This document shows, in pieces, positions 12,292 to 22,892 of a stretch of DNA of 40,456 bases. A program made the translations under genes and the position numbers. Position 1 is the stretch's first letter. Every line of letters starts with the position of its first letter. The notes beneath the pieces were generated by a model. The model made no database searches. It was not told the origin of the DNA and worked only from the letters and a program-made list of their open reading frames with translations. The stretch comes from a virus (Duplodnaviria > Caudoviricetes). The stretch spans positions 1 to 40,456 of IMG/VR virus record IMGVR_UViG_3300034171_000184, one strand, 5' to 3'.

Positions 12292-12715
12292 AAATAACAC
12301 ACAGGAAGCTCAAGTTCCCCCTTTGGGGGCTAGGGGGAAAATAGTCTACATCGCACACCCCATAGGCGGGGACGTCACGGCCAACTTAGAGAAGATCATC
12401 GCCGTCGTTCGCAAAATCAACCTAAAACAGCCCAATATTGTGCCGTTTGTGCCATATTTCGCCGATTGCGAGGCATTGAGCGACAGCGTGCCAGAAGAGC
12501 GCGAACGCGGCCTTAAAAACGGTCTGACCATAATAAACAGTGGCATCGTAAAGGAGCTGTGGCTCTATGGCAACACAATAAGCCAGGGCATGTGGGGCGA
12601 GATCCGCCAGGCGCACGTGCTGGGCATCAGGATCGTGCCGCAGACCGATGCCACCCTGTACCACCTCAAGAAGCACCTGAACGCTACTGGTGTTGATTAT
12701 ACCACCGCCCTATGA
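12281..12715 (+). CDS. Nucleoside 2-deoxyribosyltransferase-like / DUF4406-like protein
   Basis: IVYIAHPIGG...ELWLYGNTISQGMWGEI. Confidence 0.8.
   Translation: MKTKNNTQEAQVPPLGARGKIVYIAHPIGGDVTANLEKIIAVVRKINLKQPNIVPFVPYFADCEALSDSVPEERERGLKNGLTIINSGIVKELWLYGNTISQGMWGEIRQAHVLGIRIVPQTDATLYHLKKHLNATGVDYTTAL
12314..12337. repeat. REP-like palindrome inside a CDS
   Basis: GTTCCCCCTTTGGGGGCTAGGGGG, encoding VPPLGARG in frame. Confidence 0.65.
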
Positions 12716-12960
12716 ATCTGTTCACTAGGAAAAAGACCAGAAAAGAACAGACCGCCGCGCTCAGGTTGCAGGGCATCAAGATCCATACAGAATTACTGGC
12801 ACTGGATCTCGACGAGCAGCAAATGACTGACTTCTGGGAGGATTGCCATATACACGGGGAGATCAACCATGTACTGCCAGCGTGCAGTTGCGGCGATGTA
12901 AACCAGTGCGAGACGTGGTGTCGACCTAAGGCAAGGTTTCAACTGGATCCACCTGATTGA
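12712..12960 (+). CDS. Hypothetical Cys-rich protein
   Basis: CSCGDVNQCETWC; ATGA-coupled. Confidence 0.65.
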   Translation: MNLFTRKKTRKEQTAALRLQGIKIHTELLALDLDEQQMTDFWEDCHIHGEINHVLPACSCGDVNQCETWCRPKARFQLDPPD

Positions 12961-12962
12961 TT

Positions 12963-13385
12963 ATGGAAATAGAAAAAATAATTTACGAAACGACAAGAGA
13001 AATTTACAATCTTGAAGACAAATTGAGGATTGCGACTATATTTCTATTTTGTGAAAAATTAGGAAGTTCAAAACTTTCTGAACTTTTATATACTGAAAAT
13101 CATGGAATTTTTATTTCGGAAATCTCAAAAGAATATGAAAATTATGCTGTTGATTTTTCAATTAATTTCAGTAATTCGAATGTTAAAAGTGCTTTTCTTC
13201 AAACACTTGAAAAAGTCAAAAAAGAGTGCGACGGAAACGGTTATTTAAAAGCATTATTCAATAAGGACGAATATGCTTTAGTTATTGAGGAAATTGTAAA
13301 TTATAATTTTGATGAAATCGAATTTAAAAAATTTACAACTAATTTAGTTGAGCAACTTTCTTTTGATTTTGAAAACGAAAAGTAG
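12963..13385 (+). CDS. AT-rich hypothetical protein (cassette-like)
   Basis: Abrupt drop in GC content; the stop codon is followed 8 nt later by an attC-like arm. Confidence 0.75.
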   Translation: MEIEKIIYETTREIYNLEDKLRIATIFLFCEKLGSSKLSELLYTENHGIFISEISKEYENYAVDFSINFSNSNVKSAFLQTLEKVKKECDGNGYLKALFNKDEYALVIEEIVNYNFDEIEFKKFTTNLVEQLSFDFENEK

Positions 13386-13393
13386 CTATGCTT

Positions 13394-13691
13394 GCTAACG
13401 AATAGGTATATGATTAGTGCGACTTAAAAAACTAAACATTATGAATAACACGAACTTCTATTGCCAAAATAAATGTACACCCGAAGATTTTTCTATTGAC
13501 GAATGGAACAAAGCATTTGATTATTGTATTGAAAATAATATCCCCGAAGAACAGATGGGTGAAATTTTAGAGGGAAAAGACTGTAAAGAACAATGCTTTG
13601 ATTGTATGGCTGTAATTGGCAATAGAAGGATTAAAACCCAAGCTATAATAGATAAGCTAGAACTAAAGCATTAATTATATAGCGTGTTAGC
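13394..13691. repeat. attC-like long inverted repeat enclosing an ORF
   Basis: GCTAAC-N7-TATATGATTAGTGC (13394-13420) ... GCATTAATTATATA-N4-GTTAGC (13668-13691). Confidence 0.7.
13441..13674 (+). CDS. 77-aa Cys-rich hypothetical protein inside the inverted repeat
   Basis: ATG at 13441 with an A-rich leader; FYCQNKC...CKEQCFDC. Confidence 0.7.
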   Translation: MNNTNFYCQNKCTPEDFSIDEWNKAFDYCIENNIPEEQMGEILEGKDCKEQCFDCMAVIGNRRIKTQAIIDKLELKH

Positions 13692-13730
13692 GCATCGTTT
13701 TAATGCCGTTTATCCCTTCGTTATCGATTT

Positions 13731-14180
13731 TTATTCAAATAGTTTGAACTCTTCTTCTATCCTTGAACCATCCTGAAAAATCTGAATGATGATTAATTTT
13801 TCTGAGGTTTCCTCATAAGATATCTTTTCATCGTATTTTGTATCCCGCCACCTTCCGTCCTTATTCCCCCACATTATATTCTTGCCATCGATCATGAATT
13901 TATATTCATATATTTTTTCATCAGATGGTTTTTGATAATATGCGAAGTAAAGCCCGTCTGATCCATCAACGGTTATTGTTTCAGGTTCTCGGTTCATAAT
14001 TGAGGCAATTGCAGATTTTACAATAAGACGCGGCTCAACAGTGGGCTCTTCGATCCTGTTCACGACAACCTCCTGTATTTTGGGTTGGCTTTTAACATCC
14101 TTCTTTTCGTTACTTTTTTGAGCGCAGCCAATGATTAAAGTTGCTAAGACAACAAGTTTTAATATTCTATCAATTTTCAT
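13731..14180 (-). CDS. Lipoprotein moron (possible superinfection-exclusion or host-surface factor)
   Basis: Signal peptide II LIIGC; runs opposite to the early operon; low GC. Confidence 0.8.
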   Translation of the reverse strand: MKIDRILKLVVLATLIIGCAQKSNEKKDVKSQPKIQEVVVNRIEEPTVEPRLIVKSAIASIMNREPETITVDGSDGLYFAYYQKPSDEKIYEYKFMIDGKNIMWGNKDGRWRDTKYDEKISYEETSEKLIIIQIFQDGSRIEEEFKLFE

Positions 14181-14249
14181 TGTTTGGATTAAATCACTGT
14201 TAAAAAAAAGCTAAGATAACTATTTTTAAACAATTGAAAATTCAACCAA

Positions 14250-14315
14250 TATCGATAAAATTAGCATTTTATCGATAAAACACAAAACCACAACCCGCTA
14301 TTTTACGTATATTTG
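14250..14315. promoter_or_regulatory. Operator-like repeats and Bacteroidetes -7 promoter box
   Basis: TATCGATAAAA twice with a 20-bp period (second copy within the palindrome TTTTATCGATAAAA); TATATTTG at 14308-14315. Confidence 0.6.
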
Positions 14316-14437
14316 CAAAATTGAGTGAGGTTAATGATGCGCATGGAAATAGCTTAGGCCTACCAGGTGTATCTAGCCTATTTTGCCGGCATTTTATGTG
14401 CGTGTCCATTTTATTAATTATATAAAATAAGAACCGC

Positions 14438-14656
14438 ATGAGTGTTGAATTACAGAATGGTCGATTAGTGACAAAGGGTGATGATGATGGCACGGCCATA
14501 GATGATGTCATCAATTGCCGGATGGCATTGTACGGGCTTATCCAGAAACAGACCCCAGATCAGATCGACCACGATGAGCTTTATTACGCAATCAGATTAT
14601 TGAGAACGTCTGAGCCCACCCGTAAACAATGGGTAGAGGCACTACAAACCGTTTAA
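14438..14656 (+). CDS. Hypothetical protein with its own promoter, structured leader and terminator
   Basis: 72-aa ORF bracketed by a promoter box and a hairpin. Confidence 0.7.
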   Translation: MSVELQNGRLVTKGDDDGTAIDDVINCRMALYGLIQKQTPDQIDHDELYYAIRLLRTSEPTRKQWVEALQTV

Positions 14657-14660
14657 AGTG

Positions 14661-14685
14661 AATGGCCACCTATTAGGTGGCCATT
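14661..14685. terminator. Perfect hairpin / likely terminator
   Basis: AATGGCCACCTA T TAGGTGGCCATT. Confidence 0.7.
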
Positions 14686-14755
14686 GTCGTTTAAAACTGT
14701 TAATGTTTTCATATCTTAAAAAGTGGTGCTATATTTGCTCAACCTCAAACACAAA

Positions 14756-14941
14756 ATGGCTAGTAACGAGAAACTTAAACTTCGTAATAACCGCATCCGT
14801 GATCGGTTCAGGACACTGACCAATAAAAAGAGACTTGCCGTTGATTATGCACTGGAGTTGTTATCAGATGAATTCTTACCTTTAGAACAAAATACAATCT
14901 GGCTTATCGTAAGCCGTACCGGTTATTATAAAAACCTTTGA
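14756..14941 (+). CDS. Mor/C-like transcriptional activator (DNA-binding domain only)
   Basis: RNNRIRDRF...LSDEFLPLEQNTIWLIV resembles the Mor C-terminal HTH; promoter box TATATTTG at 14730-14737. Confidence 0.6.
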   Translation: MASNEKLKLRNNRIRDRFRTLTNKKRLAVDYALELLSDEFLPLEQNTIWLIVSRTGYYKNL

Positions 14942-15459
14942 TGATGAAAAAATTATTCTTTTTAACACTTTTTCTTCCACTAATGATACAAGCACAGACT
15001 TCTTTTGGTCAAAATGATATAGATGCCGCCATGGGCAATAGGAATGAAACTCTATTAGCCAATGTAGAACCAGCTTTTCCTTTAGGTATGATCCAAGGGT
15101 TTCTACAATCAGATTTACGTATGGCTGGTGGAGAATTTAAAGAGAATGAAGACACCTTCTCGCAGACTTACACACCAAAACTAAGGCAGGGCGAGGAAAA
15201 ACCTGTTTACCTTACCTACACCATGACTACAACGCCCGTAATAGGTTATCAGAACGGTATTGTTGACAAAGTGCTTATTACCGGTGATTGGAATTATGTC
15301 GTAAAATTCTTTACTCATTTCTGGTCGCGGAAGGTCAGTCTAGACGATGTAAAGGAGGGAGAGTTTGCCACCACACGGTTTTTAACCGATGTGGCCACTA
15401 TAAGTTACCTGGGCGATGACCAGGGGAAAATTGAAGTAATTACGGCTTCAAATCGCTAA
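14938..15459 (+). CDS. Secreted hypothetical protein (moron)
   Basis: Signal peptide MKKLFFLTLFLPLMIQA-Q, with the +1 Gln typical of Bacteroidetes exported proteins. Confidence 0.8.
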   Translation: MMMKKLFFLTLFLPLMIQAQTSFGQNDIDAAMGNRNETLLANVEPAFPLGMIQGFLQSDLRMAGGEFKENEDTFSQTYTPKLRQGEEKPVYLTYTMTTTPVIGYQNGIVDKVLITGDWNYVVKFFTHFWSRKVSLDDVKEGEFATTRFLTDVATISYLGDDQGKIEVITASNR

Positions 15460-15995
15460 ACAATAAAATCATCACTCACATAAACCTGCTTCCCCAGCAG
15501 GTTTTTTTTATGCCTAATATCGAGATCAGGATCCGTTAAGACAAAATTCTTCTTTTGATCTGCGCTATCATCGGCAAGGCTACATTCATACTCCAGTACC
15601 GTTACGATCACGTTCTTATGATCGGTGTCATCTTCATCGGCTATCTTATTCAGACTTGTAAAATAAGTACCGCTCAATCCCTCCAGTGCCTGGTGCACCA
15701 TTTCATTAAATTCAAAGAACGCTAAGGCCTGCTCCTGGTTGATTGATCCCGTATAGCTATCGGCATAGTTTTCAATGGCCGTACGGAAGCGGATCACGCC
15801 CTTACCTACTTTTGTCCTGGTACCGGTACTGGTATATTCAAACCTCCCAAAACTCATAAATACCGCAGGCCGTGGAAATACAAAGTTGCTGATGTCCTCC
15901 AGTTGGCCTTTGTCCTTATCCACAAATTCAAGCCCTTCCACATTTGCCATCAGGTATGTGCTGATCTCTAAAAATGTATGTCCCTTTGCGCTCAT
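15456..15995 (-). CDS. Tail terminator / Mu gp37-like protein
   Basis: VDKDKGQLE...RPAVFMSF...VHQALEG; follows the gpG-like gene. Confidence 0.7.
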   Translation of the reverse strand: MSAKGHTFLEISTYLMANVEGLEFVDKDKGQLEDISNFVFPRPAVFMSFGRFEYTSTGTRTKVGKGVIRFRTAIENYADSYTGSINQEQALAFFEFNEMVHQALEGLSGTYFTSLNKIADEDDTDHKNVIVTVLEYECSLADDSADQKKNFVLTDPDLDIRHKKNLLGKQVYVSDDFIV

Positions 15996-16501
15996 CCTAA
16001 TGCTTTTTTAAGTTCTTTGATTATCATACGCTCCACCGTGATCTCAAGTACTTTGGAGTCACCTATAAATTGCCGTTGCGGGATATCCAAATGCGTTTTT
16101 TTGGTAAGGGCCATATTTCGCCAAAAGTCATTTTTGGTCTCATACCATTTCGCCCAGAAAAAGCGGCGCATCTTTGGCGTGATCGGGAGCTTGCCACCGG
16201 TGTTATGAATTTCGGCATAGGCTTTATGGCCGCCAATACCCACGACCACCCTACGCTGGCTTACTTTTAGCTTCTTTATATCCCGCCGCGTTTTCCCGCT
16301 CTGGACCATGGTGGTGCCCTTTTTGCCCGGGTACTTTGATTTCTTCCATTTTCTGAAGGGGCGGTCCACAAACCCGCCAACCTTAAAGTTCCGCTTAAAG
16401 AAGTTCACCGCGGTAATGGCTACCTTATTGGGAAGCCTACGGCGAAAGCCCTTGTATTGGCTTTGCAGGATGTTGAACTTTTTCGCGTTATGGTTAGGCA
16501 T
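15992..16501 (-). CDS. Virion morphogenesis protein (Mu gpG / tail completion)
   Basis: YAEIHNTGG, ITPKMRRFFWA and IPQRQFIG motifs. Confidence 0.88.
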   Translation of the reverse strand: MPNHNAKKFNILQSQYKGFRRRLPNKVAITAVNFFKRNFKVGGFVDRPFRKWKKSKYPGKKGTTMVQSGKTRRDIKKLKVSQRRVVVGIGGHKAYAEIHNTGGKLPITPKMRRFFWAKWYETKNDFWRNMALTKKTHLDIPQRQFIGDSKVLEITVERMIIKELKKALG

Positions 16502-20878: not shown

Positions 20879-21313
20879 CTAGTAGCCTTCTGAATATTTT
20901 TGGTTGCTGCCCATTTGGGTAAATACACTATCAGTATCTGGATCCACACCTTCGGGCACGTTTGAGATCTCCGGAAGGTTGGGGCTGATATCGCCACGTG
21001 CGACTCGTTTAAGCCAGTCAATGGCCGAATCGTAGCGTATTTGCCTAATTTCCGGCACGTTTTCGGGTGATATGTTGGCGTGCAAATGATAAACGGCCAT
21101 ATCTACCATATACATTACGATCAGGGCGTTGCGGGCTTCTCCCACGGCCTCATAAATAACACCGGTCTGATACCGGTTGCGCAGGTAGCTTTCCATTTCG
21201 GCCTGTGCGGCAAGCTCTGACTTGCGCTGTACTGCGGGATCTTTCTGGATGATCACTTGGCGGATCCAGCCGCGTATTTGAGGATCAAAGTCCCCGTCTT
21301 CTAAAAATGCCAT
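20879..21313 (-). CDS. Mu gp36-like head-tail adaptor (DUF1320)
   Basis: DMAVYHL...RYDSAIDWLKRVARG; probable start MAFLEDGD at 21313. Confidence 0.88.
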   Translation of the reverse strand: MAFLEDGDFDPQIRGWIRQVIIQKDPAVQRKSELAAQAEMESYLRNRYQTGVIYEAVGEARNALIVMYMVDMAVYHLHANISPENVPEIRQIRYDSAIDWLKRVARGDISPNLPEISNVPEGVDPDTDSVFTQMGSNQKYSEGY

Positions 21314-21314
21314 A

Positions 21315-22892
21315 TCAGTATTGTTTATCGGGATTTCTTTCCCTTTGGCCCACGGCCGCGTTATCATCAATTTCATCAAAGGAGAGGTGCTGATGTTGAT
21401 CCAGATAGAACCAAGCGCCCTCATCGGCATCCGGTGAATCATCTGGGGAGCGGTACCCGGGTTCTATACCTTTGACCTGATTATTGCCCTCCACCATATC
21501 CGTATCGTTTTCCTCATCAATATTATACACCACGTTGCCAGAGGCGTACTCCGGTTCCATACGAACCATGCGGGTATATTTATTGGGTTTTTTCCTTGTA
21601 TCGGTGATCACCGCAAGGCTGTATTTTTCCCGTTTGATCACCCGTTTAAGGGCATTCTTAATGGGAGTGGTTATAAATTGCTGCTCCATATACCAGATGA
21701 TCCCCACATTACTGGGAAGTGTCTTTTCATAGCGGATCATAAAGGTGAAAGCATCCTCAACTTCACAACAGCGCGTAAAGCGTTTCACGCAAAACCGTTT
21801 TTGGCCGCGCAGCCCCCAGACCGATATGGCTTTGAAGTCACTGGTCATGGAATTCTCAAAGGAAGGGTCAAAATAACCGATGATTACCTGCATCTGCTTT
21901 AGGTGCGGGATCTTGGCAAACTTGAAATAGTGGTTCTTAAATATCTTCCCGTCCACCGCGTTCTGGTGAAAGAATTCTTTCATCGCGCGTATTGGCCCCG
22001 CCTTTTTCATTTTGCGCACGATTTCTTCAAGCGTGTAGCGCTGATGCCAGGCAACCTTTGCGCTGGTGATCTCGCCATCTACGTCCTTGACGATATCGGT
22101 CAGGGCATAGACCTTACTGTGATAAAGTCCCTCGCGTTTTTTAGCACCGGGACGGGTATCGCCCACTATGTTTGCGAGAATAGAATTGGAATGTATCCGG
22201 TTCCCGCCCATGCAGAGCCTTGCACCCTTAATGCTCAATGCGAAATAAAACGCCCCAAGGATGTTATTAACGACCTTATCGACCCTTTTTGGATTGTTGA
22301 CGATTTCGTCGTCGTCGATGTCGTCAATAACGCCATAATTGGGGCGTTTTTCATTTTTACGCGCTCCCCGTGGTGACTGGTTTCGGCCATAGGCTTTAAA
22401 TCGGATTCCGCCCTTTGTGGTAAAATCGCCATCCTGCCAAGTGCCAAAGTTGTACTGCTCACCAAAGTCATTTGCGAAGAGCTCATTAAATTGTAATTGC
22501 GCCTGTATATCGCTCAGGAGGTTACAGGCGTCAGTATCATTTTTTCCCATCAGCAGCATCCCGGTCAATTGCCCGTGGGCGATGAGCCACATGGGAATGA
22601 TAATGGTGATGTGCACCGATTTTGCATGTTCCCGTGGCCACTCGGCCACGCCAAAGAAGTTGGGGTCTTTTAGGCAGGCATTGGCAAAGGCGATCTGCCA
22701 GTCCGAACAATCGGCATCCGCATAGAGCGGGTAGTATTTCCTGACGAAATAATTATAATCCTTGAGCCCTTTCTTTTTGCGCTCGGCTTGCACCTTTGGG
22801 TCTTCATTGAAGGCCACAGAGGTACTGTTCTGTACCTGGGCACAGAATTCAAGCCATTCGGCATAATCGCGTTTTGTGATTGCCTGCGCCAT
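21315..22892 (-). CDS. terL: Terminase large subunit
   Basis: WPREHAKS Walker A variant, VIDDIDD, YFDPS and DDSPDA nuclease motifs. Confidence 0.92.
   Translation of the reverse strand: MAQAITKRDYAEWLEFCAQVQNSTSVAFNEDPKVQAERKKKGLKDYNYFVRKYYPLYADADCSDWQIAFANACLKDPNFFGVAEWPREHAKSVHITIIIPMWLIAHGQLTGMLLMGKNDTDACNLLSDIQAQLQFNELFANDFGEQYNFGTWQDGDFTTKGGIRFKAYGRNQSPRGARKNEKRPNYGVIDDIDDDEIVNNPKRVDKVVNNILGAFYFALSIKGARLCMGGNRIHSNSILANIVGDTRPGAKKREGLYHSKVYALTDIVKDVDGEITSAKVAWHQRYTLEEIVRKMKKAGPIRAMKEFFHQNAVDGKIFKNHYFKFAKIPHLKQMQVIIGYFDPSFENSMTSDFKAISVWGLRGQKRFCVKRFTRCCEVEDAFTFMIRYEKTLPSNVGIIWYMEQQFITTPIKNALKRVIKREKYSLAVITDTRKKPNKYTRMVRMEPEYASGNVVYNIDEENDTDMVEGNNQVKGIEPGYRSPDDSPDADEGAWFYLDQHQHLSFDEIDDNAAVGQRERNPDKQY

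Follow-up and report, generated by a model that had tools for sequence, protein, structure and literature searches.

A gene-bearing hairpin in a Mu-like phage is probably a decayed member of an integron-like cassette family

The phage and its AT-rich block

The window, the whole stretch of 40,456 nucleotides analysed here, is filled by a complete Mu-like transposable phage encoding a repressor, a transposase, MuB, a contractile tail and a DNA methyltransferase. A Leeuwenhoekiella MAG (L147) has a terminase 94% identical to that of the phage, which makes a bacterium of this genus the likely host. At the end of the early operon lies an AT-rich block, with genes of GC 0.26, 0.32 and 0.36 against 0.45 overall, in which a hairpin and further boxes are set among three genes:

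12963..13385, + strand: AT-rich gene for a 140-aa protein (GC 0.26), a cassette 'body' gene that has kept its 3' box and lost its 5' box and hairpin
13394..13399, + strand: left box GCTAAC, equivalent to R' on the folding strand; the crossover is predicted to lie within its AAC
13407..13420, + strand: left stem arm, separated from the left box by a 7-nt spacer
13441..13674, + strand: gene for a 77-aa Cys-rich helical protein, filling the loop; ATG at 13441, TAA at 13674 inside the right stem
13668..13691, + strand: right stem arm (13668-13681), 4-nt spacer and GTTAGC box (13686-13691), the R''-equivalent
13692..13705, + strand: start of an 'empty body' that ends in the shared motif TCGTTTTAATG, its closing AAC missing
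13706..13728, + strand: right-hand half of a small palindromic site; its GTT is 13720-13722, and by profile the site is attI-like
13731..14180, - strand: gene for a 149-aa predicted lipoprotein, between the complementary boxes GTTATC (13720-13725) and GATAAC (14215-14220)
14215..14220, + strand: closing box GATAAC; homology to a sister prophage returns about 12-27 nt beyond it

A preliminary description, made from the letters of the window, had recognized the boxes, the arms, the loop gene and the position of the left arm just after an AT-rich gene, all of which we confirm; its annotation was incomplete, as it missed the second half-site (13695-13728) and the box at 14215-14220. It was also correct that the phage encodes no tyrosine recombinase: none was detected among 51 ORFs scanned or by tblastn of the window.

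The stretch that bears the hairpin was found again, with no letters changed, in contigs of further runs, one such contig, from another study (X6), having four one-letter gaps. Searches by blastn of named phages gave no useful match and no close sister phage was found among viral contigs. In six Mu-like relatives (L148-L153) the corresponding early-region slot is a variable hotspot, and these phages are too distant to reveal an empty site. By eye, two of them (L148 and L152) carry reverse-transcriptase-like ORFs in this slot, 1-2.3 kb upstream of a Mor-like gene, which may be DGR-like. A third, the Mu-like prophage of Aquimarina (L153, about 20950-21490), has two right arms of the hairpin family in the same slot, with an ORF reading through one of them. 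Elsewhere in the window, a short GC-rich palindromic repeat (12313-12339), presumably REP-like, lies in frame at the start of a nucleoside deoxyribosyltransferase-like gene; it has many matches in Leeuwenhoekiella-genus genomes (L479 is one example), and the sister's nucleoside deoxyribosyltransferase-like protein is without the residues that it encodes. No inverted repeat in the window is longer than the one at 22247-22350 (37 nt, 73%), which lies within the terminase gene.

Genes of the block

The 77-aa protein has 57 homologs, which share seven invariant columns including four invariant Cys, and the ORF is thus real. Its model is confident (pLDDT 90), with no usable family, Atlas or fold match. 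The gene occurs in 18 viral loci: once in a loop between the same arms (L107), once as a body, once before a small hairpin and 15 times free, the arms being absent around these 15. In L107 the same hairpin and loop gene stand behind a different left neighbour, and similarity to the window ends within the right spacer. Three homologs (P0052, P0056 and L119) have N-terminal extensions that resemble read-through of a right arm, suggesting that the gene also exists as a body joined to a front part that a hairpin encodes.

The 140-aa protein has 144 homologs. A script found a GTT/AAC box pair of at least 8 nt at 5 of 22 viral homolog loci, two of them near-identical, and L136 was added by eye; no such partner box lies upstream of the gene in the window. 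Its family was present in 1 of 401 Flavobacteriaceae genomes, there without arms. Among the best fold matches of its model are several to the N-terminal portions of M subunits from type I restriction-modification systems, at weak scores (Z 5.1 and 4.6, rmsd about 4), and the model thus offers a weak lead to a possible anti-restriction or mimic role. The 149-aa gene is, from its flanking boxes, likely to be a further cassette body. Its protein has no sequence homolog except itself, and it has an Atlas look-alike cluster that is for the most part from Bacteroidota. Both the 140-aa and the 149-aa genes are missing from the sister prophage.

Anatomy and folding of the hairpin

The left box begins 8 nt past the stop (13385) of the 140-aa gene, and 292 nt separate AAC from GTT, with spacers of 7 and 4 nt. 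All positions of the 14-bp stem are paired on the + strand, with two G.T pairs, and the arm duplex is more stable on this strand (-13.2 kcal/mol) than on the other (-7.2 kcal/mol). On arm profiles trained on loci other than the window, the left and right arms score 23.9 and 22.3 bits, against 10.9 and 7.2 bits for the next-best positions in the whole window, which contains one left and one right arm only; the hairpin is the sole one of its kind in 40 kb. It has no Rfam and no terminator match.

The fold itself is less favourable. When the whole strand is folded, + or -, the minimum-energy structure does not contain the stem, which is also not among the 25 longest inverted repeats that a repeat search returned for the window. 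Its pairing probability is 0.03 on the + strand and 0 on the - strand, compared with a mean of 0.60 in 45 sampled hairpins of 200-450 nt. With its closing AAC gone, the window copy appears trimmed; as it is also a poor folder, it is probably immobile or nearly so. No excision joints were seen in contigs of eight runs, contigs being prone to drop rare variants; runs X10-X12, which had small shares, gave scattered pieces only. No RNA run was among those listed as carrying the sequence.

A hairpin family with a one-sided break

Arm-pattern scans returned 4, 102, at least 120 and at least 120 loci. In 386 loci (1.46 Mb), a stem finder identified 693 distinct hairpins, compared with 38 in 0.47 Mb of shuffled sequence; as these loci were mostly fetched by the arm pattern, the count is not an estimate of prevalence. 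The left spacer is 3 nt longer than the right in 312 of the 693. We kept 514 hairpins (offset 2-4, score of at least 11) and dropped 179; the majority of those kept, 319, measure 100-199 nt. Of the motif-confirmed hairpins, 52 are 200-700 nt long; a complete ORF lies in 40 of them on the folding strand, these ORFs representing 34 protein families, and 10 of these long hairpins have a stop codon at the same stem position as in the window. This bears out the idea, in the preliminary description, of an attC-like, single-strand-folding family whose arms surround unrelated ORFs. Loops bear ribosome sites and start codons, with the ATG of loop ORFs mostly 34-69 nt past the AAC.

Several features identify the folding strand. 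G.T pairs, which mark attC bottom strands according to the part of PMC5027507 consulted, outnumber A.C pairs by 442 to 7 across 214 arm pairs from chromosomes, selected on the motif only. In the part of Table S3 of PMC9892861 consulted, almost every bottom strand is bounded by AAC-G and, at its opposite end, by T-GTT; the + strand of the window is too. Judged by these letters, the gene-bearing + strand is the folding strand, equivalent to an attC bottom strand. The two G.T wobbles noted earlier are therefore real but do not lie on a 'top strand', and the R'' and R' labels first given to the boxes are reversed. A no-bulge alignment scored best in 295 of the 312 offset-3 hairpins, when single bulges near the outer stem end were the ones tried.

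The boxes pair across bodies. The four bases that follow a GTT are perfectly complementary to those preceding the next AAC in 47% of 257 cases; for the hairpin's own AAC this holds in 5% of 513, and at random in 3%. Comparison of 247 pairs of hairpins with homologous loops, which are not mutually independent, revealed 29 pairs (7 families) in which the left flank differs and the right agrees, and none with the reverse; in 50 more both flanks differ, in 1 both agree, and in 167 a flank is intermediate, only 1 of the 247 having a common left flank. Identity stays at background until 2 nt before the AAC and is 81-93% through 5 nt beyond the GTT. Together, the one-sided break at the AAC and the pairing of boxes across the body indicate that the mobile unit is likely to be a hairpin plus its downstream body, with a predicted crossover at the left AAC, the invariant triplet concealing the exact spot. 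Fifty-nine pairs also differ to the right of the GTT and, with the divergence of L107 within the right spacer, show that exchange within similar arms occurs as well. The right box had at first been taken as the place of crossover, at its G|TT on the + strand; this was dropped after the strand comparison with Table S3 and in view of the family-wide break at AAC.

A recombinase at the head of chromosomal arrays

No IntI above the TIGR02249 cut-off was found in 151 Flavobacteriaceae genomes. Many Flavobacteriaceae genomes encode a recombinase of about 375 aa whose best family is NF040815 (over the cut-off in 4 of 6 tested) and which has 27 residues where VchIntIA has 70, making it about 43 aa shorter at the IntI insertion. 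Behind this enzyme, 19 of 20 stretches (338 kb) contain 114 hairpins in a single orientation, about four of them double counts or artefacts, compared with 3 hairpins in 20 control stretches (398 kb). Five of the 20 stretches were picked after a hairpin had been sighted; the other 15 contribute 84 hairpins in 14 stretches. A first hairpin follows within 2.5 kb in 28 of 37 recombinase matches, and in 27 of these 28 an exact 7-nt complement of its box lies 29-128 nt after the recombinase stop, often behind a palindrome. This attI-like box beside the recombinase fixes the side of the crossover independently. The hairpins are therefore not an integrase-less system, as the preliminary description had suggested, for the family goes with a tyrosine recombinase of host arrays; of the host IntI or Xer-like enzyme envisaged to act in trans, a candidate host recombinase stands and IntI does not. 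A divergent ORF of about 122-131 aa lies upstream of the array recombinase at many Flavobacteriaceae loci (L469, L507, L517, L518 and others), the L507 copy having weak zinc-finger-type Pfam matches only.

Chromosomal and viral copies differ in how genes are laid on the folding strand. Body genes of chromosomal arrays lie opposite to it in 32 cases and on it in none (2 both, 21 none), whereas viral body genes share it in 73 cases and oppose it in 2 (62 none). Chromosomal hairpins are mostly of about 123 or 188 nt, and 103 of 114 fall within 100-199 nt; a loop with a whole gene therefore appears to be characteristic of phages. Of 23 genomes of the likely host genus, 8 encode the recombinase at 54% identity or more, some copies being partial or broken, and arrays follow. 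Five distinct viral contigs (L250, L237, L288, L230 and L306) have their own short form of about 266 aa, located after the array and on the folding strand. The enzyme could thus come from the host or from another phage. In five Bacteroidales genomes, the best recombinase matches were at 32-39%.

A sister prophage with different cargo at the same locus

A DNA search of 401 Flavobacteriaceae genomes returned one prophage (G001:C271) and one weak match (G003). The sister prophage aligns with window positions 12407-12961 (76%) and 14247-16428 (79%); between them, 1.28 kb of the window (12962-14246) face about 245 bp in the sister, and this comparison rests on one sister phage. In the sister, the shared stop codon is directly followed by a small palindrome that is intact, with AAC, stem, loop motif, stem and GTT in this order, and that lies at about 1445-1505 of L488. 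Next comes an unrelated gene for a 57-aa protein, encoded on the other strand. Its left-facing site scores 7.5 bits on the attI-like profile, close to the leave-one-out median of about 7, and faces the direction needed to accept the 77-aa and 140-aa cassettes. No array recombinase was found in the incomplete MAG that holds this prophage.

Gain or loss at the GTT box, which the preliminary description had predicted for sister prophages, was not what this comparison gave. The left junction, at 12961/12962, coincides with a stop/start border and has no box, and the right one, at about 14232-14247, lies 12-27 nt past the closing AAC; neither falls on a box, GTTAGC included.

The window retains part of the sister's small palindrome, its loop motif and right arm, at 13695-13728, and within this, the 23 nt of 13706-13728 are identical, in inverted orientation, to the left arm of the sister. 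On a profile built from 27 chromosomal attI-like sites, the GTT at 13720 ties for first among 1191 GTT sites of the window. The exact small-palindrome pattern had 0 viral matches, and with up to two mismatches it was found in 2 of 23 genomes of the likely host genus. Forty empty bodies contain a 10-mer core of TCGTTTTAATG, as do the loops of 62 small hairpins, and L426 shows the same chimera of body and small hairpin; a deletion across this common motif would therefore explain the right junction.

Relation to known systems

Like classical attC sites, the window hairpin has AAC and GTT boxes around an inner stem, its arms and those of the family fold better on one strand with G.T pairs favoured and, at the family level, exchange is placed at the folding-strand AAC between boxes complementary across the cassette. 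The spacers of 7 and 4 nt and the span of 292 nt depart from the 5-6 nt per arm and 57-141 bp given in the portion of PMC5027507 consulted. In further contrast to attC, which has two or three extrahelical bases near L'', the stem has none; a whole gene occupies the loop; and the loop gene and the 140-aa gene lie on the folding strand, whereas attC sites stand 3' of genes carried on the top strand. Chromosomal Flavobacteriaceae arrays keep the classical gene and site layout. As in integrons, the host arrays have a candidate attI-like entry site, identified by its sequence, beside a tyrosine recombinase; unlike in integrons, the window has no recombinase and the host enzyme is without the IntI-specific insertion.

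The closest published systems are rAID-1 clusters and phage CALINs. In the text available of the two rAID-1 reports (bioRxiv 10.1101/471110; 10.1101/2025.05.03.651265), these clusters of Bacteroidales have an XerD-like recombinase on the 5' side, short downstream genes that are co-oriented, and repeated motifs between genes that are 'reminiscent of integrons', a layout that Flavobacteriaceae host arrays share. The recombinase of rAID-1 is further defined by more than 44% identity to BF9343_RS08045. By this comparison of layout, rAID-1 differs in that its cargo is immunity genes and that the consulted text describes no hairpin, strand, crossover or phage copies; the phage of the window differs in having no recombinase. 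A CALIN comprises at least two attC sites and no integrase, and the window has one full hairpin and one half-site, neither classical. In the part of PMC9892861 consulted, the Polaribacter phage P12002L is a Bacteroidota phage with such a CALIN, and P12002L_attC1 is, among six sites, the one without a verified IntI1 junction (section 3.4). This site, of those in P12002L the most similar to the hairpin family, resembles the small site of the window in loop motif and stem type. The same text takes the P12002L sites as ordinary attC and describes neither genes in loops nor a reversed orientation of genes nor a cognate enzyme; the window, by contrast, has its one full hairpin in a temperate Mu-like phage. 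The literature searched, which covered few subscription journals, gave no account of loop-borne genes or of the recombinase and hairpin pair. What is new here is the comparison of sister phages and the mapping of sites in a Mu-like phage. Taken against these systems, the window hairpin is probably a real, decayed member of an integron-like variant system.

Competing explanations

A chance inverted repeat would suit an AT-rich region and a stem outside the minimum-energy fold, but it is refuted by the independent family profile, which both arms fit far above the rest of the window, and by conservation of the family in hundreds of loci. In the preliminary description, the hairpin was a cassette that packages itself and that a host IntI or Xer would cut at the G|TT in the right box. 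The outer boxes of the window copy do pair over 6 nt, and L107 has the same gene with the same arms in another phage. This explanation is nevertheless largely refuted, and we give it very little credence: boxes within a hairpin pair barely above random, no pair of homologous loops keeps its left flank while the right one changes, none of the 151 genomes passes the IntI cut-off, and the similar P12002L_attC1 is the site for which the available text of PMC9892861 reports no verified IntI1 junction. It is improbable, too, that the arms are regulatory or structural repeats, such as RNA stems or leader modules, with modules swapped by homologous recombination inside the arms. Ribosome sites and start codons within loops, the exchange observed inside arms and the search of genomes in which no IntI was found would agree with it, but it leaves unexplained the one-sided AAC break, the pairing of boxes across bodies, and the attI-like box in 27 of 28 loci with fixed orientation behind one recombinase. 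The folding strand of chromosomal copies is moreover the non-coding one, and Rfam and terminator searches gave no match.

A closer alternative retains the family and the enzyme but has the block imported ready-made from the array of another phage, with the left gene border joined by illegitimate recombination and short homology used at TCGTTTTAATG, and with no site-specific event in this lineage. The box-free left junction exactly at a stop/start border, the occurrence of the motif in both bodies and small hairpins, the identical chimera in L426 and the variability of the slot in L148-L153 all speak for it. We consider it unlikely, albeit with an appreciable chance of being correct, because the sister has an attI-like site exactly here, of typical score and facing as the window cassettes point.

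The explanation we hold to be probable is that the window has a solitary copy of the Flavobacteriaceae array hairpin family, which moves as a hairpin plus its downstream body and is cut at the left AAC by a non-IntI recombinase. It builds on the observed anatomy, family, strand bias, AAC break, link of recombinase and arrays, and different cargo in the sister at the same locus; the link of this enzyme to these sites is a candidate one, drawn from adjacency and box matching. In the proposed pathway, the folded, gene-bearing strand would be cut at the left AAC by a tyrosine recombinase without the IntI insertion, supplied by the host or another phage. The cut strand would then be joined to a double-stranded attI-like site and the junction resolved by replication, by analogy with attC as presented in the consulted part of PMC5027507. 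Because the folding strand is the one that encodes phage genes, the body is downstream of the loop, and the loop is able to carry a ribosome site and a gene. We infer that the 140-aa cassette, and then the 77-aa cassette, entered at a left-facing site like that of the sister, and that two later deletions, one across the repeated TCGTTTTAATG and one fusing the start of the 140-aa gene to the upstream stop, would have left three accessory genes as a largely locked block where the early operon ends.

Implications

According to the part of PMC9024848 consulted, IntegronFinder detects almost no complete integrons in Bacteroidetes; against this, arrays stand behind a non-IntI recombinase in 19 of the 20 Flavobacteriaceae stretches examined here. 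We tentatively propose that Bacteroidota may have a second kind of integron, in which a recombinase without the IntI insertion reads bulge-free hairpins, that phages may use it backwards, with the loop as a second cargo bay, and that even recombinase-free Mu-like phages may, at the end of the early operon, keep a docking site of their own that is attI-like and serves to capture host and phage cassettes. If the enzyme acts on these hairpins, cassette capture from a folded strand would need neither the IntI insertion nor extrahelical bases, and the loop may be long enough for a gene. The window phage and its sister form a small before-and-after substrate set for such a reaction. If true, this would provide a defined route for accessory genes between the hosts and phages of a dominant marine phylum.
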